A stretch of DNA of 64,000 bases, taken from Candidatus Multivoradales bacterium (lineage in GTDB: Bacteria; Acidobacteriota; Thermoanaerobaculia; Multivoradales; JAHEKO01). Shown here in pieces: positions 30,591 to 39,293 of the stretch (position 1 is the first letter of the stretch; each line of letters starts with the position of its first letter). The position numbers were made by a program, and so were the translations under genes. The stretch spans positions 576,001-640,000 of the forward strand of contig CBDCXM010000009.1 in NCBI GenBank assembly GCA_965223855.1. The letters are read 5' to 3'. The notes below the pieces were generated by a model. It saw only the letters and a list, made by a program, of their open reading frames with translations, did no database searches and was not told the DNA's origin.

Positions 30591-32576
30591 CTAGTCGGAG
30601 GCGTCGGGCTCGCGGCCGTTCAGGAGATCGAACCCCCGATCGATCTCTGCGTGACTGCCGACCAGCACCAGGTCGTCACCCTCCTCGAGCACGGTGCCGG
30701 CATCGGGGTTGGGCTGCGGCTTCTCTCCGCGAACGACCGCCAGCACGGTGGCGCCGGTGCGTCGTCGCAGGTCGAGGTCGCGCAGCGAGCGGCCGACGAC
30801 GGCACTCCCGGGCTCGATGCGGAAGATGTCGGTCGTCCCCGCCTCCAGCGCATCGAGGACCGCAGCCGACACCGCGGGGCTGCCCTCCGGCGAGCGGAGC
30901 ATCCGGTAGCCCTCGCCACGCAGCACCCGGGTCTGCGCCCGCACGACGTTGCGCGGCACGTGGAAGCGCTCGAGCACGAGGGTGAAGATCTCGATCGCGG
31001 TCTCGAACTCCTCGGCCACGACCTCGTTGGCGCCGAGCGCGCGCAGCTCCTCGATCTCGTCGAGCCGACGGGTCCGCACCACGAGCTCGACCGTCGGGTT
31101 GAGGTCTCTGGCGACCTGCACGGCGCGCTTCTGGGCGGTGTGGTCCGAGAGCGCGAACACCACGAGGCGCGCCCGCTCGATCCCGGCGTGCTCGAGCACC
31201 TCGCGCCGGGTCGCGTCGCCGAAGAAGATCGGTTCGCCGGCGCGCCGGCCGCGCTTCACCGTCTCGGAGTTGAGCTCCGCGACCACGTAGCGGATCCCCG
31301 CCTCCCGCAGCACCCGGGCGACGAGCCGGCCGCCGGCGCCGAAGCCGAGCACGATCACGTGTTCGCGGGCCGCCGCCACCTCTTCCGGCGAATCGGCGGC
31401 GGGCGACTCCCAGCGTCGAGCCCAGGCCCGGCCGGCGGCGGGTGCGAGAGAGACGAGGAGTGGCGTCAGGACCATGGTGAGCACCACGGCGCTCAGCAGG
31501 AGCTGGTACGCCGCCGCTTCGAGCAGGCCGTGCGATCGCCCCACCTCCATGAGGAGGAACGAGAACTCGCCAATCTGCGCCAGGCCGAGCCCGGCGACGA
31601 TGCGGATGCGCGCCGGCAGGCCGACGGCGAAGACGGCACCGCCGGCGACCACGCTCTTGATCACGACGACCGCCCCGGCCAGCAGCAGGATCGCCGGCCA
31701 GTTCGCGACGACGAAGCGCAGATCGACCAGCATGCCGATCGAGATGAAGAAGACGCTGGCGAAGAGATCGCGGAACGGCGCCACGTCCGCCACCGCCTGG
31801 TGGCTGTACTCGGTCTCCGAGATCAGCAGGCCGGCGACGAAGGCACCCAGCGCCAGCGAGAAGCCGAGCACATGGGTCCCCCATGCGAGCGCCAGGCACA
31901 GCCCGAGCGAGCCGAGGACGAAGGTCTCGCGGGCGCGGGTGCGGGCGATGCGGTCGAAGAGCGCGGGGGCGACCCGGCGGGCGATCAGCACGACGGCACC
32001 GATCGCCGCCAGCGAGCCGCCGAAGCGCAGCGCGAGATCGGCGGCCGACGCCCCCACCTCCCCGGCGAGCACCGGCACGAGGACGATCATCGGCACGATC
32101 AGGAAGTCCTGGAAGAGCAGGATCCCCAGCACCATGCGCCCCTGGGGCGTCTCGGTCTCGCGCCGGTCGCCGTAGAGCTTGAGCACGATCGCGGTGCTCG
32201 ACAGAGCGATGACGAAGCCGAAGAAAATCGCCCGCTCGATCGACAGGCCGAGCGCCAGGCTCGCCCCCGCCACCAGCACCGCCGTCACCCCCACCTGCAG
32301 CGTCCCGCCGACGAGGAACGGGCGGCGGAGCTCCCGTAGCTTGGCGAGCGACAGCTCGAGACCGATGACGAACAGCAGCAGCACGACGCCGATCTCGGCG
32401 AACACCTCGACATCCTCGGTGTCGGAGACCCAGCCGAGCGCCGACGGGCCGATCAGCACACCGGTCAGGAGCAGCGCGACGACCGGCGGGATCCGCAGTC
32501 GCGCCGTGACCAACAGAACGGTGACCGCGCTCGCCAGCAGGACGACGCTTTCCTGAAGCAGGTGTTCCAGGTGCAC
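30591..32576 (-). CDS. CPA2/Kef-type cation:proton antiporter with TrkA-N and TrkA-C domains
   Basis: AEIGVVLLLF.IGLE, LSSTAIV, LFQD, LAQIGEFSF, GFG..G, GDAT, C-terminal RCK-C domain. Confidence 0.92.
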   Translation of the reverse strand: MHLEHLLQESVVLLASAVTVLLVTARLRIPPVVALLLTGVLIGPSALGWVSDTEDVEVFAEIGVVLLLFVIGLELSLAKLRELRRPFLVGGTLQVGVTAVLVAGASLALGLSIERAIFFGFVIALSSTAIVLKLYGDRRETETPQGRMVLGILLFQDFLIVPMIVLVPVLAGEVGASAADLALRFGGSLAAIGAVVLIARRVAPALFDRIARTRARETFVLGSLGLCLALAWGTHVLGFSLALGAFVAGLLISETEYSHQAVADVAPFRDLFASVFFISIGMLVDLRFVVANWPAILLLAGAVVVIKSVVAGGAVFAVGLPARIRIVAGLGLAQIGEFSFLLMEVGRSHGLLEAAAYQLLLSAVVLTMVLTPLLVSLAPAAGRAWARRWESPAADSPEEVAAAREHVIVLGFGAGGRLVARVLREAGIRYVVAELNSETVKRGRRAGEPIFFGDATRREVLEHAGIERARLVVFALSDHTAQKRAVQVARDLNPTVELVVRTRRLDEIEELRALGANEVVAEEFETAIEIFTLVLERFHVPRNVVRAQTRVLRGEGYRMLRSPEGSPAVSAAVLDALEAGTTDIFRIEPGSAVVGRSLRDLDLRRRTGATVLAVVRGEKPQPNPDAGTVLEEGDDLVLVGSHAEIDRGFDLLNGREPDASD

Positions 32577-32707
32577 GGGGGGATTCTACGGGTCGGCTGC
32601 CAAGATGCCGTCTCGACTCGAGAACGAACTCACTCCCAACGGAGTCCGGAAGGACAGCACGAGCGTCAGACCCTCGCCCCTCTTGACTTGACCCAGAGTC
32701 ACACCAC

Positions 32708-32736
32708 TTGACAACAGCCTTTCGTTCGTCCATACT
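32708..32736 (+). promoter_or_regulatory. Sigma70-type promoter driving the retron locus
   Basis: TTGACA (32708-32713), 17-bp spacer, CATACT (32731-32736); predicted TSS near 32743. Confidence 0.75.
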
Positions 32737-32742
32737 CCCCTC

Positions 32743-33379
32743 ACTTCGGCCTTTGATTCAAAGGCCCAGATCTTTGAGACGTAGAGAATCTCTCTTGCGA
32801 GAGCGATCAGAAGGGGAAGATTCATGGAGCAGCGTCAACGCTGGCGCTGTTCGGGCTCCCGAGCCCTCTTAATGGGGACACATCCCCGCGACCGATTGCG
32901 GTCGAAACCTTCCACCACCCCTTGGCTGACTACCTACTGGTCTCGGTCTGACTATTCTCAGATCTAGATCGAATTGGTTCAGTTAGGAGTTGTGAGAGGA
33001 CAACGCGGCGGCAGCTGCGTTTGAAAGACGGGTTAACCAACGCTTCATCCCGGCGAATCTCGATCCAACCTTCTTTTCGGCGGCGGAAGGGCAATGGAGT
33101 CTTTCCGAGATTGCAAGGAGGTTTTCTATGAAAACCAAAGATCTGTCGCTCGCGCTCGCCAACCTTAGGCGTCTTCGGGCGGAACCGGGATTGGAGTTAG
33201 GTCATCGAAAGGTCCTGAACAAAGCTGAGAGGGAACTGAAAGCAGTAGCGCGATCAGGTAAGCCGCAACCCGACAGGGTATATCGAGCGGTAGAGCTGAT
33301 TTGCGAAGTTGCTCTTGAGGTGCTCTTTCAGTCGACGTCGGTGCGATAGACCAGGTTAACCCGTATTTCCATGAACTTC
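32743..33379 (+). ncRNA. Putative retron ncRNA (msr-msd-like hybrid RNA enclosing the small ORF); ends approximate
   Basis: Chain of short hairpins (32748-32766, 32830-32843, 32853-32866, 32874-32887, 32889-32904, 32947-32962). Long-range pairings 32816-32828/33368-33379 and 33023-33038/33354-33369. Lies upstream of a retron-type RT. Confidence 0.65.
33128..33349 (+). CDS. Small helical protein, putative retron effector/toxin
   Basis: 73 aa; strong RBS AAGGAGG at 33115-33121; first gene of the SP-HTH-RT operon. Confidence 0.7.
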   Translation: MKTKDLSLALANLRRLRAEPGLELGHRKVLNKAERELKAVARSGKPQPDRVYRAVELICEVALEVLFQSTSVR

Positions 33380-33380
33380 T

Positions 33381-33689
33381 ATGAACTACGGTAAAGCAAT
33401 AAAGATATGTCGCGCTGCATTCGACCTGAGCCAGGTCGATCTGGCGGCGCACCTATCTATTGGCCCGAGTCAGCTGTCGTTGGTCGAGGCTGGAAAGAGA
33501 CGTCCCAGCACGCGGACGATCGAGGAGATTTGCCAAACCCTTGGAATTCCGCCAGCGCTATTCCATGTACTCGCAGCCGACGGCGACACTCTGCAGTCAC
33601 AATCAAACGAACTAGTTTCCTCCCTTGGTGAGAGCCTTCTGCGGCTTCTGGTTTCCTCCTCATCGTCAACGGGCTCACGGCTCTCATGA
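33381..33689 (+). CDS. XRE/Cro-C1 helix-turn-helix protein (retron-associated)
   Basis: GKAIK..R....LSQ..LA..L.I..S.LS.VE.GKR.PS..TI..I...LGI; ATGA overlap with the RT gene. Confidence 0.88.
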   Translation: MNYGKAIKICRAAFDLSQVDLAAHLSIGPSQLSLVEAGKRRPSTRTIEEICQTLGIPPALFHVLAADGDTLQSQSNELVSSLGESLLRLLVSSSSSTGSRLS

Positions 33690-34564
33690 GGCCGCTTCTT
33701 TCCCTTCGAGATCTTGAGTGGAGACTCGAGATCCCACGTGAAGTACTTCGCAAGATCGCGAGTTCGATTCCGCTGCACTACCATCCTTGGCGAAAGGGAA
33801 ACCGGCTCATCGACAATCCGGACGAGCAGTTGAAGCACATCCAGCGGAGGATCAACTCTCGCCTCCTTGACGAGCTCGACTTGCCACTTCACCTTCACGG
33901 CGGCGTTCGTGGCCGATCACCTCGAACCAACGCACAAGCGCACAGCGCCGCCAAAACTCTCGTACGAATCGATGTAGAGAGGTTCTTTCCAAGCATCACG
34001 AACCGGCACGTGTACGGTGTGTGGCGCGACCAACTCGGAGCAGGCCGAGATGTGGCCAAGCTCCTGACTCAGCTGACGACGTATCGTTTTCGACTCCCGC
34101 AAGGCGCTCCATCAAGCGTAGCGCTAGCGAATCTCGCGCTGGCTCCGATCGAAGATTTCCTCTTGGTGCGTTCTGAGGAACTCAACATCGTTTTCACCCG
34201 TTTCGTTGACGACATCGCGTTGTCCGGGGACTATCCGCAGGAACTTATTCAAGACGTCGTTACGGGGCTTCGCTCGCTCGGCCTACGAAACAACCGCAAG
34301 AAGCTGAATATCATGGGGCCCCAATCGAACCGCCAACTGACCGGGCTCAACACCGAGAGCAGTGGCGGTCCTAGCGTCCCTCTGGAGTACCGAAATGGCC
34401 TGCGGTCAGCGGTCCATCGATATCGGCATTCTCGAGACGGCTCCGAGGAGAAGTCTAAGGCTCTCGACAGACTAAGGGGCCGAATCAACTACGTAAGGCA
34501 GACCAACCCCGGCTCGGCGAGATCACTTGAAGAGCTGCTGGTTGCCGTTGAAGCCCACGCCTGA
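33686..34564 (+). CDS. Retron-type reverse transcriptase
   Basis: LK.IQR.I, HGGV.GRS, NAQAH (retron region X NAxxH), D.E.FFPSI, LPQGAPSS..LANL, FTRFVDDI..SG (catalytic xxDD), N..K, QLTGL (region Y VTG-like). Confidence 0.9.
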   Translation: MRPLLSLRDLEWRLEIPREVLRKIASSIPLHYHPWRKGNRLIDNPDEQLKHIQRRINSRLLDELDLPLHLHGGVRGRSPRTNAQAHSAAKTLVRIDVERFFPSITNRHVYGVWRDQLGAGRDVAKLLTQLTTYRFRLPQGAPSSVALANLALAPIEDFLLVRSEELNIVFTRFVDDIALSGDYPQELIQDVVTGLRSLGLRNNRKKLNIMGPQSNRQLTGLNTESSGGPSVPLEYRNGLRSAVHRYRHSRDGSEEKSKALDRLRGRINYVRQTNPGSARSLEELLVAVEAHA

Positions 34565-34688
34565 GCATAGGTGGGCATCGCCGGTTTAGACCCAGCCGGT
34601 ACCGGCGAATGGACTGGGTCACGGAGTATTCCTCAGCGTCCGGCAGTAACCACCTTTCGCTCAGCTGTCCTGGCCGGTACCATCCCGC

Positions 34689-37600
34689 ATGCTTGATCGT
34701 CAGGTCGAATCAGGCCTGAACGTCTTCCACCCGACGATCGCGCGCTGGTTCACCGAGTCGCTCGGCACACCGACCGACGTCCAGGCGCGCGCGTGGCCGC
34801 GGATCGCCGCCGGGGAGCACCTGCTGGTCAGCGCTCCGACCGGTACCGGCAAGACGCTGACCGCGTTTCTGTGGGCGCTCGACCGGCTGCTCACCGGAGC
34901 GTGGGAGGGCGGGCAGGTGCGGGTGCTCTACGTCTCGCCGCTGAAGGCGCTCAACAACGACGTGCGGCGCAATCTGCTCTCACCGCTGGCGGCGTTGGAG
35001 ACTGCGTTCGAGACCGCCCGAGAGCCCTACGAGCCGGTGGAGGTGATGACCCGCAGCGGCGACACGCCGCAATCGGAGCGCCAGCGGATGGTGCGGCGGC
35101 CGCCGGAGATCCTGATCACGACGCCGGAGAGCCTCAACATCCTGCTCACCTCCAAGGGCGGGCGGTCGATCCTCACCGGGCTCGAGACGGTGATCTTCGA
35201 CGAGATCCACGCCGCCGCCGGGTCGAAGCGCGGCACCCACTGGATCACCGCCGTCGATCGGCTGGTGCCGCTGGCGGGGGAGTTCCAGCGCATCGCGCTC
35301 TCCGCCACGGTGCGGCCGCTCGAGACGGTGGCGCGCTTCGTCGGCGGCTACGAGATGCGGCCACTCGACGACGAGGGACGCGAGGTCGAATACCGCGAGC
35401 GGCCGGTCGGGATCGTCACCTCGGAGCGGGCGAAGGCGTACGACCTCGAGGTCGATCTCGGTGCGCCACAGCTTGCGGACGCGACCGCACCCGGCGGCAC
35501 AGTCCCGGGCACAGGCGAAGCCGGCATCAACGAAGACAAGGAGGAGAATGCCTGGGAGAGCCTCGCCGCCCGCATCGTCGACGTGGTGGCGCGCAACCGC
35601 TCGACGCTGGTGTTCGCCAACTCGCGCCGCACCACCGAGCGGCTGACGCGGCTGATCAACGAGCGCGGGAGCACCACCGGCAACGCCAGTCTCGCCTACT
35701 CCCACCACGGCTCGCTGTCGCGGGAGCTCCGCACGGTGGTCGAGCGCAAACTCAAGAACGGTGAGCTCCGGAGCATCGTCGCCACCAACTCGCTCGAGCT
35801 CGGCATCGACATCGGCTCGCTCGACGAGGTGGTGATGGTGCAGACGCCGCCGACGGTCGCGGCGGCGGTGCAACGGCTCGGGCGCGCCGGCCATCAGGTG
35901 GACGCCGTCTCGCGCGGGCGGCTCTATCCGCTGTTCGAGCGCGACCTGGTGAGCGCTGCCGTGGTCGCCCGCTGCGTGCTCGAAGGGGACATCGAGGAGG
36001 TGCGGCCGATCGAGGGGGCCCTCGACGTGCTCGCGCAGGTGATCCTCTCGATGGTCGCCACCGAGGCGTGGCCGCTCGACCGCCTTTTTCACACCGTGCG
36101 TTCGAGCGCCCCTTACCACCGCCTCAGCCGGCGGCAGTTCGACCTGGTTCTCGAGATGCTCGCCGGCCGCTACGCCGACACCCGGGTGCGGGAGCTGGCG
36201 CCGCGGGTGACGATCGACCGGGTCGAGGGGGTGGTGCACGCGCGCCCCGGGGCGGCGATGAGCGTCTACCTCTCCGGCGGCACGATCCCCGACCGCGGCT
36301 ACTTCGGCCTGCGCACCGTCGACACCATGGCGAAGCTCGGCGAGCTCGACGAGGAGTTCGTCTGGGAGCGCCGGGTCGGCGACACCTTCTCGCTCGGCGC
36401 CCAGAACTGGCGGGTGCGGCGGATCACTTCGAGCGACGTGCTCGTCTCCCCCGCACACCGCTCGGCCGCCATGACCCCGTTCTGGCGTGCCGACGCGCGC
36501 AACCGCAGCTTCTTCCTCTCCGAGCGGCTGGGCACGTTCCTCGAGACAGCCGACGCCCATCTCGAGGAGCCGGGCGGCCGTGAGGCGCTCCTGGCCGCCC
36601 TCACCGAGCGCCACGCGCTGAGCGCCGAGGCCGCCGCCGCGCTGGTCGATCTGCTGGAGCGCCAGCGCGAGGCGACGGGCGGGTCGCTCCCCCATCGGCG
36701 CCATCTGCTGGTCGAGCACGCCGACGACGCCACCGATCAGTCGGGCGGCAGGCGGATGCTGCTGCACACCGGCTGGGGCGGGCGCGTCAACCGGCCGTTC
36801 GCCATCGCGCTGGCGGCGGCGTGGGAGGAGCAGAGCGACCTGCCGCTCCAGATCGAAGCCGAGAACGATGTCGTGCAGATCGTCCTGCCGTCGCCGATGG
36901 CGATCGACGACCTGCTGGCGCTGGTGCGGCCCGACAACATCGAGAGCCTGCTGCGCGCCCGGCTCCAGCGCACCGGCCTCTTCGGCGGCCGATTCCGCGA
37001 GAACGCCGGCCGCGCGCTGCTGCTGCCGCGCTCCGACCTGCGACGCCGGATCCCGCTGTGGCTCACCCGCGAGCGCTCGAAGAAGCTCCTCGAGTCGGTC
37101 GCCGGCCACGAGGACTTCCCCGTCGTCGTCGAGACCTGGCGCACCTGTCTGCAGGACACCTTCGACCTGGAGGCGCTGCGCCAGGTGCTCGATGAGCTCG
37201 ACCGAGGCGAGATCCGCATCACCGAGTGCCGCACGCTCGCACCGTCGCCGTTCGCCGCCGCACTGGTCTGGCAGCAGACCAACCGGCTGATGTACGAGGA
37301 CGACGTGCCGGAAGGGGGCGGCGAGCTCAGCCGCACTCTCCTCCAGGAGCTGGTGTTCTCGTCGCAACTGCGCCCGCGACTCCCGGCCCAGTTGATCGAC
37401 ACGTTCCAGCGCAAGCTCCACCGCACCTTCCCGGGGTACGCGCCGACGACGATCCCGGAGGTCGACGCCTGGATCGGCGAACGGTTGGCGCTGCCGGTCG
37501 AGGAGTTCGAGGCGCTGCTTGCGGCGCGGGCGCGCCAGGTCGGCGACGCCACTACGGCCGAGCTGCTGGAGCTGGTCGATACCGAGGCGTGTGTCGTCAG

Positions 37601-39293
37601 CACGGCCGGCGGCGGGCGCTGGATCTCGGCACTCGAGCGCCTGCCGCGGGTGCTGCGCGGGCTGTCGTTGACTCCCGAAGACGTCGAGCTGACCTCGATC
37701 ACCGACCCTGGAGGGCCGGTGTCCGCGGAGTTCCGCTCCCATCTCGAGGAACTGTGGCAGAGCCGTGAAGATCCGGGCGAGGGCGCCGGGGAGGCGCTAC
37801 GGGCGCTCCTTGCCGAGTGGCTGCGCTTCTACGGCCCGATCCCGCCACGGATGCCGGTCGCGGTCTTCGGGCTCGAGCCCGCGGCGGCGCAGCGCGCGCT
37901 GGCGGCGCTGGTCGACGACGAGACGCTGGTGCTCGACCGCTTCCGCCGCGACGACGATGACGAGGAGCTGTGCGACGCCGAGAATCTGGAACGATTGCTG
38001 CGGGCGCTGCGCGCCCAGGCACGACCGTCGTTTCAGGCGCTACCGCTCGACCATCTGCCGCTGCTGCTGGCCGAGCGTCAGGGGCTTGTTGGCCGCGGCG
38101 ACGGCATCGAGGGGCTGCAGGACGCGCTCGAGGGGTTGCTGCTCTACCCGGCGCCGGCCGGGAGCTGGGAGTCGGATCTGCTGCCGGCGCGCCTCGCCCC
38201 CTACTACCCGGCGTGGCTCGACTCGGTGCTGCTCGAGAGCGACCTGGTGTGGATCGGCTGCGGGCGCGAGCGCACGACCTTCACCTTCGCCGAGGAGCGC
38301 GAGCTGCTGGCGGAAGCGCCGATCGACGAGGACCTCGCCGGAGAGCTGCCGCCGGAGATCGACGAGGCGTTCGCCTTCGGCCGCCGCCGGGCGTTCGAGG
38401 AGCTGGTGCGCTCGCAAGATGCACCGGCGGCCGACCTGGCGGCGAAGCTCTGGCGCGCGGCGTGGCGCGGCGAGCTGTCGAACACCACCTTCTCGGTGGT
38501 GCGCCAGGGAGTACTCCAGCGTTTCAAGCCAGCGGCAGCGGCGGAGCGGCGTCCTCCGAGGCCCGGCGGCCGGGGCAGCCGCTCCGCCGTCGGCCGACGC
38601 GCCTTCGATCGCTGGAAGTCGGCGCGTCCCTCGGGCGGCGACTGGTTCCGGCTCGACCCGGTCGCCGCGCCCGAGGACCCGCTGGCGGCCGAAGACCTCG
38701 AGCGCGACCGCGCCCGGTTGCTGCTGTCGCGCTACGGCATCCTCTTCCGCGAGCTGCTCGACCGCGAGCTGCCGAGCTTCCAGTGGTCTCGGATCTTCCG
38801 CGCCCTCAGACTGATGGAGCTCTCGGGCGAGGTGGTGGCGGGGCAGTTCTTCGAGGGAATCCACGGCCCGCAGTTCGTCTCGCGCTCGACCTGGCGGCGG
38901 CTCTCCGAGGGACTCGGCCAGGGGGAGGTCTACTGGGTCAGCGCAATCGACCCGGCGGCGCCGTCGGGGATCGCTCTCGACGAGTGGCGCGAGCGCTGGC
39001 TGCCACGCCGCTCGTCGAACCACCTGGTGTTCGAGGGGACGCGGCCGGTGGTCCTTTCGCGCCGCCACGCCGCCGAGCTCGACATCACGGTGCGCCCCGA
39101 CCACCCGAAGCTGCCCGAGTATCTCGGCTTCCTGAAGGTGCTCCTGACGCGCGACGCTCAGCCACGCAAGGCGATCGACATCGAGACGATCAACGGCGAG
39201 CCGGCCAAGCGGAGCGCCTTCGCCGGCCCGCTGGGAGAACTCTTCAGCACCACCCGCGAGGCGAAGAGCCTGCGGCTGCGCCGGCGCTACTGA
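34689..39293 (+). CDS. lhr: Lhr-family ATP-dependent DEAD/DEAH helicase (long form)
   Basis: APTGTGKT, YVSPLKALNND, ILITTPESL, DEIH, LSAT, HHGSLS, SLELGIDIG, QRLGRAGH, GGTIPDRG, ELDEEFV. Confidence 0.93.
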   Translation: MLDRQVESGLNVFHPTIARWFTESLGTPTDVQARAWPRIAAGEHLLVSAPTGTGKTLTAFLWALDRLLTGAWEGGQVRVLYVSPLKALNNDVRRNLLSPLAALETAFETAREPYEPVEVMTRSGDTPQSERQRMVRRPPEILITTPESLNILLTSKGGRSILTGLETVIFDEIHAAAGSKRGTHWITAVDRLVPLAGEFQRIALSATVRPLETVARFVGGYEMRPLDDEGREVEYRERPVGIVTSERAKAYDLEVDLGAPQLADATAPGGTVPGTGEAGINEDKEENAWESLAARIVDVVARNRSTLVFANSRRTTERLTRLINERGSTTGNASLAYSHHGSLSRELRTVVERKLKNGELRSIVATNSLELGIDIGSLDEVVMVQTPPTVAAAVQRLGRAGHQVDAVSRGRLYPLFERDLVSAAVVARCVLEGDIEEVRPIEGALDVLAQVILSMVATEAWPLDRLFHTVRSSAPYHRLSRRQFDLVLEMLAGRYADTRVRELAPRVTIDRVEGVVHARPGAAMSVYLSGGTIPDRGYFGLRTVDTMAKLGELDEEFVWERRVGDTFSLGAQNWRVRRITSSDVLVSPAHRSAAMTPFWRADARNRSFFLSERLGTFLETADAHLEEPGGREALLAALTERHALSAEAAAALVDLLERQREATGGSLPHRRHLLVEHADDATDQSGGRRMLLHTGWGGRVNRPFAIALAAAWEEQSDLPLQIEAENDVVQIVLPSPMAIDDLLALVRPDNIESLLRARLQRTGLFGGRFRENAGRALLLPRSDLRRRIPLWLTRERSKKLLESVAGHEDFPVVVETWRTCLQDTFDLEALRQVLDELDRGEIRITECRTLAPSPFAAALVWQQTNRLMYEDDVPEGGGELSRTLLQELVFSSQLRPRLPAQLIDTFQRKLHRTFPGYAPTTIPEVDAWIGERLALPVEEFEALLAARARQVGDATTAELLELVDTEACVVSTAGGGRWISALERLPRVLRGLSLTPEDVELTSITDPGGPVSAEFRSHLEELWQSREDPGEGAGEALRALLAEWLRFYGPIPPRMPVAVFGLEPAAAQRALAALVDDETLVLDRFRRDDDDEELCDAENLERLLRALRAQARPSFQALPLDHLPLLLAERQGLVGRGDGIEGLQDALEGLLLYPAPAGSWESDLLPARLAPYYPAWLDSVLLESDLVWIGCGRERTTFTFAEERELLAEAPIDEDLAGELPPEIDEAFAFGRRRAFEELVRSQDAPAADLAAKLWRAAWRGELSNTTFSVVRQGVLQRFKPAAAAERRPPRPGGRGSRSAVGRRAFDRWKSARPSGGDWFRLDPVAAPEDPLAAEDLERDRARLLLSRYGILFRELLDRELPSFQWSRIFRALRLMELSGEVVAGQFFEGIHGPQFVSRSTWRRLSEGLGQGEVYWVSAIDPAAPSGIALDEWRERWLPRRSSNHLVFEGTRPVVLSRRHAAELDITVRPDHPKLPEYLGFLKVLLTRDAQPRKAIDIETINGEPAKRSAFAGPLGELFSTTREAKSLRLRRRY

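Follow-up and report, generated by a model that had tools for sequence, protein, structure and literature searches.

Does the small protein encoded by a retron owe the timing of its synthesis to the fold of its own messenger, and what would open that fold? The question is raised by a locus in a 64,000-nucleotide (nt) window of Candidatus Multivoradales bacterium (contig CBDCXM010000009.1, positions 576,001 to 640,000; "the window" is this whole stretch, and coordinates are counted from its first letter). Here, an earlier note had proposed a two-state switch, in which the Shine-Dalgarno (SD) region of the gene for the small protein (SP) is masked by an anti-SD sequence and is freed by a competing hairpin. 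We identify the flagged stretch as the riboregulator (33040-33136) in the predicted hybrid RNA of a retron of Type VI, an antiphage system for which a lock of this sort was reported in 2025. The masking, or OFF, helix between the SD and the anti-SD is confirmed and conserved. By analogy with the experimentally studied Retron-Vpa2, translation of SP is probably gated in a manner linked to the reverse-transcribed, multicopy single-stranded DNA (msDNA) of the retron, a reading to which we give a probability of about 0.6.

A Type VI retron and its ribosome-binding site, predicted to be masked

Sequence matches assign the locus to the Type VI retrons; its gene order is SP-HTH-RT (HTH, helix-turn-helix protein; RT, reverse transcriptase), and it lies on a low-GC island. 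The RT scores 216.5 bits against the PADLOC family RT_VI over residues 4-277, as opposed to 159.8 bits against the runner-up family. The three genes and the elements of the lock in front of the first are the following.

33128..33349, plus strand: SP, 73 amino acids, open reading frame from ATG 33128; candidate toxic effector with a hydrophobic C-terminal helix
33381..33689, plus strand: Cro/C1-type HTH protein, 102 amino acids (PADLOC HTH_VI, 9.5e-19; Pfam HTH_3, 1.9e-11)
33686..34564, plus strand: retron RT, 292 amino acids (PADLOC RT_VI, 1e-64; Pfam RVT_1, 3.9e-12)
33115..33123, plus strand: SD region AAGGAGGTT, 6 nt before the ATG, read from the sequence
33067..33075, plus strand: anti-SD AACCTTCTT, which pairs with 33115-33123 and aligns with the CCT[CT] block of the family
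33084..33107, plus strand: hairpin b, a 9-bp stem (33084-33092 with 33099-33107, pair probability P 0.94-0.96) with the loop AAUGGA in a conserved GGGCAAT context

The four strings from which the switch had been built (AATCTCG, AACCTTCTT, CGAGATT, and AAGGAGGTT) are all present where the earlier note had placed them. The predicted transcript, 32743-33380, folds to -269 kcal/mol, as against -221 ± 5.8 kcal/mol in 20 shuffles (z -8.25), and its minimum free energy (MFE) structure contains the SD:anti-SD helix as it had been read, with 9 bp and one G-U pair. The pairs of this helix, which encloses hairpin b, have probabilities of 0.49-0.66 in the full transcript; all nine occur jointly in 40% of the ensemble, and the SD core is left with an unpaired probability of 0.07. 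The site of ribosome binding (RBS) and the start codon thereby lie within stem-loops, and in either main state the AUG has its G paired, to an extent not beyond that in shuffles.

Conservation of the lock among relatives

The nearest RTs in the protein collection are 60, 56, 55, and 49% identical to that of the window and are mostly metagenomic. A scan of metagenomes, queried with 50 aligned RTs, brought up 370 relatives, of which 80 loci were kept for analysis, and a tblastn search with SP gave matches in 29 of these loci besides the window, mostly aligned from residue 1. Three loci with short upstream DNA (L039, L055, and L067) and six exact duplicates (L026, L037, L041, L043, L046, and L060) were left out, giving a comparison set of 21 nonredundant loci, window included. 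The order SP-HTH-RT is found in 21/21 of these, and their RTs are 35-44% identical to that of the window. A search of genome contigs with the RT alone returned 137 pattern matches and no relatives. In the host's own phylum, Type VI-like RTs are present in 21 of 401 genomes (E ≤ 1e-30), with an identity of at most 39%, too distant to use; among these genomes, SP was seen at the window's own locus only.

In the alignment, the leaders have in common a block with promoter and operator, a 5′ stem-loop, TTAATGG, a GC-rich terminal hairpin, the CCT[CT] block, the GGGCAAT hairpin, and the SD. In 13 of the 21 loci, the sequence that pairs best with the SD has its end between -50 and -58 relative to the start codon; a fourteenth (L061) carries a 35-nt insertion. 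When placed by alignment rather than by pairing, the CCT block fits the SD of its own locus better than those of other loci (-9.57 versus -8.01 kcal/mol; permutation p = 0.0003). At the level of single letters, 14 of the 17 loci that could be scored match CCUU to AAGG or CCUC to GAGG (Fisher 0.015, without correction for relatedness). The 21 members, window included, served to build a covariance model, which recovered 27 loci, adding 6 to those already known. When these 27 are aligned to the model, the GGGCAAT hairpin, which is hairpin b in the window, has 96.2% of its cells paired and both-side changes in four of its five pairs.

Several results weigh against a regulatory lock, and they fall into two groups. 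The first is thermodynamic. The duplex in the window, at -10.4 kcal/mol, compares with -8.3 ± 1.6 kcal/mol in dinucleotide shuffles of the upstream 80 nt, 10.7% of 1000 of which form one as good. When the upstream 100 nt are shuffled in the same way, the SD is unpaired with a probability of 0.10 versus a shuffled mean of 0.18, and 30.5% of 200 shuffles are as low. Across the family, 13 of the 21 loci fall below their own shuffle mean, the means for the unpaired SD being 0.31 for the family and 0.33 for the shuffles. At 25 other genes of the window, a crude background in which starts were picked by best SD, the mean is likewise 0.31, and 12% of the genes are as hidden. A helix-length statistic that allowed free G-U pairs was dropped; in it, the 9 bp of the window are matched by 6.6% of 1000 shuffles, and it is uninformative because the G/U-rich SD pairs promiscuously, so duplex energies were used instead. 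Occlusion of the SD is thus not beyond chance thermodynamically, and the case rests on the relatives.

The second group concerns these relatives. The duplex energy beats 95% of shuffles in 3 of the 21 loci, with a modest family mean z of -0.68. The C/U-G/A covariation comes down to about three anti-SD changes on the RT tree, on which a test of independent pairs retained one pair on supported branches and had no power. RNAalifold, run on the MAFFT alignment, gave a consensus without the SD helix; predicted in its place was a small hairpin, absent from the window, whose loop holds the anti-SD. The family covariance model, in turn, does not recover the riboregulator of the window at E ≤ 0.01. When the SD helix is held to a fixed register, 56.7% of its cells are paired in the model-fitted alignment, a figure that probably understates it, as the SD side is out of register among the rows in both the MAFFT alignment and the covariance model.

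These numbers give some room to the view that the complementarity is fortuitous, a purine-rich SD meeting a pyrimidine-rich partner as it would in any structured leader, with no regulatory meaning. The two shuffle fractions for the window agree with it, and so does the occurrence of four 7-mers common to the riboregulator and the upstream 380 nt, where by our estimate about 2 are expected. A fortuitous partner, however, is not expected to keep its position in 13 of 21 loci, to prefer the SD of its own locus to those of the others, or to enclose a conserved and co-varying hairpin; moreover, an equivalent arrangement is functional in Retron-Vpa2, as far as its preprint describes it. We therefore hold chance complementarity to be very improbable.

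The second state of the riboregulator

If the OFF helix is accepted, the next issue is the state with which it alternates. Two further elements are needed here.

33120..33136, plus strand: start-codon hairpin GGTTTTC-TAT-GAAAACC, -5.2 kcal/mol, which offers the 3′ half of the SD another partner
32904..32913, plus strand: second partial anti-SD GAAACCTTCC, at the base of a long stem with GAGG 32996-32999 in the MFE structure

The hairpin that had been put forward as the open state joins an outer helix, AATCTCG (33056-33062) with CGAGATT (33106-33112), to an inner helix of CCTTC with GAAGG. It can be written, and its outer helix belongs to the MFE structure only when 33040-33140 is folded alone. 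In the fold of 32743-33380, which had been suggested as a check and which bears out the SD:anti-SD helix, the outer helix has a P of 0.02-0.04 and the inner one a P of 0.00. The hairpin is nearly unpopulated because the GAAGG and CGAG bases are tied up in hairpin b. It is also not conserved in the related loci.

Nor would this hairpin free the RBS, as had been claimed, since G33120-U33123, the GGUU of the SD, would then pair with 33130-33136 in the start-codon hairpin. In the latter, GGUUUUC (33120-33126) pairs with GAAAACC (33130-33136) over a perfect 7 bp, with the start codon at the tip. The full transcript gives it a P of 0.33-0.38, and the segment 33040-33140 folded by itself one of ~0.99; in the predicted ensemble it is the actual second state, overlooked in the earlier note. 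Under no condition tried do the residues G33120-U33123 become unpaired (probability 0.00), and this includes the one in which the anti-SD is held single-stranded; there, the SD core as a whole reaches an unpaired probability of no more than 0.20-0.34. With its ON hairpin nearly unpopulated and unconserved, and with half of the SD left in the start-codon hairpin, the specific two-state switch is unsupported. In the window, 33040-33130 compacts the two inner hairpins of the family into overlapping alternatives.

The additional partial anti-SD noted at 32904 is indeed present, and AACCTTC within GAAACCTTCC (32906) is an exact 7-nt copy of 33067-33073. It is not conserved, however: in the related loci the copy has no co-varying counterpart, the longest shared word being 5.81 for a locus with itself and 5.49 across loci. 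At the base of the long stem, where 32908-32913 faces 32992-32999, this copy (CCUU.CAC) pairs with an SD-like GUGAGAGG. The pairing at the base of the stem mimics that of SD and anti-SD within the same RNA, and the related loci are without such a mimic.

The hybrid RNA

The riboregulator is part of a larger predicted structure, the further elements of which are listed below.

32748..32766, plus strand: 5′ stem-loop; MFE helix 32748-32755/32759-32766, with a stem-loop aligned at the equivalent place in the 21 loci
32815..32826, plus strand: 5′ arm of the long-range closing helix (a1/a2-like); MFE pairs 32815-32819/33376-33380 and 32821-32826/33370-33375
32827..33021, plus strand: first arm, msr-msd-like; MFE helices, with conserved blocks in the 21-locus alignment
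33023..33038, plus strand: 5′ arm of the second long-range helix, containing GGGTTAACC; MFE pairs 33023-33026/33366-33369 and 33028-33038/33354-33364
33354..33380, plus strand: 3′ strand of the long-range helices, after the SP stop codon and just before the HTH start; MFE and conservation

The continuous 3′ strand 33354-33380 pairs in the MFE structure with 33028-33038, 33023-33026, 32821-32826, and 32815-32819, so that the first arm (32827-33021) juts from a long closing helix. This arm is made up of several small hairpins, the conserved TTAATGG (32869-32875), a long imperfect stem (32908-32999), and a terminal hairpin (33002-33021). Across the 21 loci, the two sides of the enclosing helix fit each other better within a locus than between loci (-28.4 versus -22.9 kcal/mol; 0/20000 permutations as low). 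As modeled, the layout is that of a three-arm hybrid RNA such as the preprint on Retron-Vpa2 describes, with a template arm, a riboregulator, and an SP-coding arm. A single transcript of ~565-640 nt would carry all three.

A direct repeat that links template and riboregulator

What connects the template arm to the lock is a short direct repeat, the copies of which we call R1 and R2.

33002..33021, plus strand: R1 hairpin, 8-bp stem, loop GGCA, bearing R1 (CGGCGGC, 33006-33012); MFE, with an equivalent in the family
33078..33086, plus strand: R2 (CGGCGGC/GCGGCGG), 2 nt 3′ of the anti-SD, from the repeat search; candidate landing site of msDNA

The word CGGCGGC is read twice: at 33006-33012, where it spans stem and loop of the hairpin that ends the first arm, and at 33078-33084. 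In the family, a repeat of 7-11 nt is found at both equivalent places, and its sequence varies from locus to locus. The mean length over the 21 loci is 7.76 nt for the two sites of the same locus versus 5.86 nt across loci, with 0/20000 permutations as high; the own repeat exceeds the cross mean in 20 of the 21 loci, and an inverted-repeat control gives 5.38. With 27 loci, the corresponding lengths are 7.63 and 5.70. At the level of sequence, this co-variation is the best comparative support for the idea, proposed for Retron-Vpa2, that the DNA hybridizes with the riboregulator. To judge from the text of that preprint, R1/R2 would be the same repeat as the one proposed there, and the R1 hairpin would be a candidate template for the 5′ stem-loop of msDNA.

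The folding results for these elements are less distinctive. R2 is unpaired with a probability of 0.27-0.66 at 33078-33083. Accessibility shows no excess at R1 (0.29 versus a leader average of 0.32) and is slightly higher at R2 (0.43). The candidate msDNA, folded as DNA, is no stabler than its shuffles (z -0.67).

How the lock would be opened

In Retron-Vpa2, a Type VI retron of Vibrio parahaemolyticus, the gating of SP translation by msDNA is experimental (Zhang et al., bioRxiv 10.1101/2025.10.22.683967). According to this preprint, the RBS and AUG lie in stem-loops of the hybrid RNA (hyRNA); translation of SP requires msDNA, and msDNA supplied in trans from another retron is sufficient; the 5′ stem-loop of msDNA is essential; 7-nt direct repeats in msd and the riboregulator are proposed to hybridize after copying into DNA; and RT, HTH, and hyRNA assemble into a complex (bioRxiv 10.1101/2025.10.22.683967). 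The broader proposal of the earlier note, namely, a gating of SP by RNA conformation tied to RT-made DNA, thus has an experimental precedent in a system with the architecture seen here.

By analogy, one RNA beginning near 32743 would contain the template (32827-33021), the riboregulator, and the SP-coding sequence, closed by the 32815-33038/33354-33380 helices. In the resting RNA, the SD would be held either by the anti-SD, through the 9 bp around hairpin b, or by the 7-bp start-codon hairpin, and as it is held in either helix, SP would be poorly translated at rest. Upon phage infection, reverse-transcribed DNA would accumulate as in Retron-Vpa2. The 5′ stem-loop of the msDNA, as a copy of the hairpin 33002-33021, would be complementary to R2 (33078-33086) beside the anti-SD. 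Hybridization at R2 would then remodel the riboregulator, allowing ribosomes to load and the putatively toxic SP to be made. The present analysis itself yields the architecture and the fold, together with the finding that the position of the anti-SD and the R1/R2 repeat are conserved; we infer the transcript ends, the synthesis of msDNA, the toxicity of SP, and the derepression step.

A more elaborate version of this mechanism would make of msDNA a two-handed clamp, with its 5′ hairpin on R2 (33078-33086) and its 3′ end on the anti-SD (33067-33073). That 3′ end may be copied from 32904-32913 and so bear an SD mimic. The geometry fits, with 4 nt between the sites on the RNA and with both DNA ends joined by the msDNA stem. 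RNase H could then cut the DNA:RNA hybrid and sever the anti-SD from the SD, making activation irreversible. We regard the clamp as a long shot.

The proposed role of R2 meets a difficulty in silico. With R2 held single-stranded, the SD stays closed: averaged over the family, its unpaired probability drops from 0.28 to 0.24, only 4 of 20 loci showing an increase, and in the window it drops from 0.15 to 0.03. As blocking R2 fails to open the SD, the model does not reproduce the step from hybridization to ribosome loading. This result would suit a gating without DNA hybridization, in which binding or release of RT-HTH, or a rearrangement of the RNA only, opens the SD helix. In the RNA-only version, copying and subsequent degradation of its own partner would leave the 3′ strand of the hairpin 33002-33021 to pair with R2. 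The complex of RT, HTH, and hyRNA in Retron-Vpa2 is consistent with the former; with the latter, that R2 copies the 5′ strand of the R1 hairpin, so that the 3′ strand of this hairpin is complementary to both R2 and R1. On the other hand, msDNA from another retron sufficed in trans to induce SP translation in Retron-Vpa2, according to the preprint, and the RNA-RNA alternative in the window, as read from the sequence, would comprise about 5 pairs only. A gating of this kind appears improbable to us.

The main rival to the gating by msDNA places control after translation. The pairing would then be part of a scaffold in the retron RNA, required for RT binding and priming, with SP made constitutively and neutralized by HTH until a phage signal arrives. 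This is the logic of Retron-Sen3, in which the RBS is predicted to be sequestered, yet SP is constitutive (Garcia-Rodriguez et al., bioRxiv 10.64898/2026.04.27.721009). As that preprint reports, tagged SP is detected without phage, HTH neutralizes SP without RT or noncoding RNA, and a 5′ stem-loop-type element is essential (bioRxiv 10.64898/2026.04.27.721009). Since SP of Retron-Sen3 is constitutive despite its sequestered RBS, sequestration in silico is, on that account, no proof of gating here, and occlusion of the SD in silico cannot by itself separate the regime of Retron-Vpa2 from that of Retron-Sen3. An occlusion no stronger than in shuffles or background genes agrees with the latter, as does the fact that HTH is the best-conserved protein of the locus, with a mean column identity of 69% versus 53% for SP. 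The co-varying R1/R2 repeat, however, is predicted by the msDNA hybridization model and would be without a role in a purely posttranslational scheme; further, the window has two layers over its SD and start codon. We consider control of this kind unlikely, albeit the most serious of the alternatives, and favor the gating by msDNA.

Promoter, genes, and genomic setting

32697..32736, plus strand: promoter, including an inverted repeat; -35 TTGACA (32708-32713), 17-nt spacer, -10 CATACT (32731-32736)

This promoter, with 10/12 matches, is the sole promoter-like site in 32560-34720, where shuffles lead one to expect 0.5. From it, the RNA would begin near 32743, the same start as that of the region in the earlier note. 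The inverted repeat AGTCA-N7-TGAC (32697-32712) extends into the -35 box, and the 21 aligned loci preserve AGTCA-N7-TTGACA; by its sequence it is operator-like, perhaps for the retron's own HTH protein. More TTGAC words lie just upstream of the inverted repeat (32683-32693). At the other end of the leader and SP-coding arm, the start codon of HTH (33381) has no recognizable SD and lies directly 3′ of the 3′ strand of the closing helix (window 33366-33383). As this start abuts the long closing helix, translation of HTH may likewise depend on the fold of the hybrid RNA.

In the RT, the catalytic FVDD falls in the conserved block R[FY]VDD, and the HTH and RT genes share 4 nt (33686-33689). SP matches no Pfam or PADLOC family above threshold, the Pfam family DUF5955 being below it at 17.1 bits versus a cutoff of 27.1. 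The aligned SP family (loci L023-L062) shows a near-invariant SGK motif, a conserved DPR/L..Q..L..A.REL core, and the hydrophobic C-terminal helix. In the 4.52-Mb genome, RT_VI has its match at this locus only. The retron forms a 2.1-kb island (window ~32600-34690) with a GC fraction of 0.52-0.60, as against 0.69-0.74 in the flanks and genome. To its left is a gene for a Na+/H+ exchanger-TrkA protein (30591-32576, minus strand) and to its right a gene for an Lhr-type helicase (34689-39293). An Rfam scan of 32300-34800 at E ≤ 10 gave no matches.

Relation to known systems

The element is real and of a known kind, as gating of SP by reverse-transcribed DNA has already been published for the Type VI Retron-Vpa2. 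To our knowledge, Type VI is the sole retron type whose reverse-transcribed DNA is reported to turn the toxin on rather than restrain it. The two members studied, Retron-Vpa2 and Retron-Sen3, follow different logics as their preprints present them. The RNA architecture known from the studied Proteobacteria recurs, far away from them, in the present locus and its about 26 environmental relatives. The locus adds no new principle; its value is that of a divergent test case, in which the candidate landing site borders the anti-SD and the start codon is under a second lock.

As far as the preprint describes it, Retron-Vpa2 shares with this locus the SP-HTH-RT operon; the single RNA with template, RBS/start-codon, and SP arms closed by inverted repeats; the direct repeat of ~7 nt common to the end of msd and the riboregulator; and a small hairpin at the 3′ end of the template, of 20 nt here versus the 23-nt 5′ extension of its msDNA. 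The two differ in that Retron-Vpa2 is known from experiment and the present locus from sequence and predicted fold; in the length of the transcript, about 565-640 nt as predicted here versus about 470 nt there; and in the host, which here is an environmental bacterium with 70% GC. Unlike in the description of Retron-Vpa2, R2 is directly beside the anti-SD, and a perfect 7-bp start-codon hairpin provides a second lock.

With Retron-Sen3 and the cl2075 lineage, as these are described, the locus has in common the SP-HTH-RT order, a long-range pairing that encloses the SP gene, and an RBS predicted to be sequestered. In contrast to the reading preferred here, control in Retron-Sen3 is posttranslational, through HTH, with constitutive SP, and, in contrast to the present host, those carrying that lineage are mostly Beta- and Gammaproteobacteria.

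Beyond retrons, leaders that sequester the SD and are activated in trans are exemplified by the rpoS mRNA, which is opened by the small RNAs DsrA and RprA, and by synthetic toehold switches. In those leaders, as proposed here, a separately made nucleic acid pairs with the strand that masks the SD and turns translation on. The parallel ends with the activator, which in this case would be a single-stranded DNA made by the RT from the same transcript and would land beside the anti-SD rather than on it.

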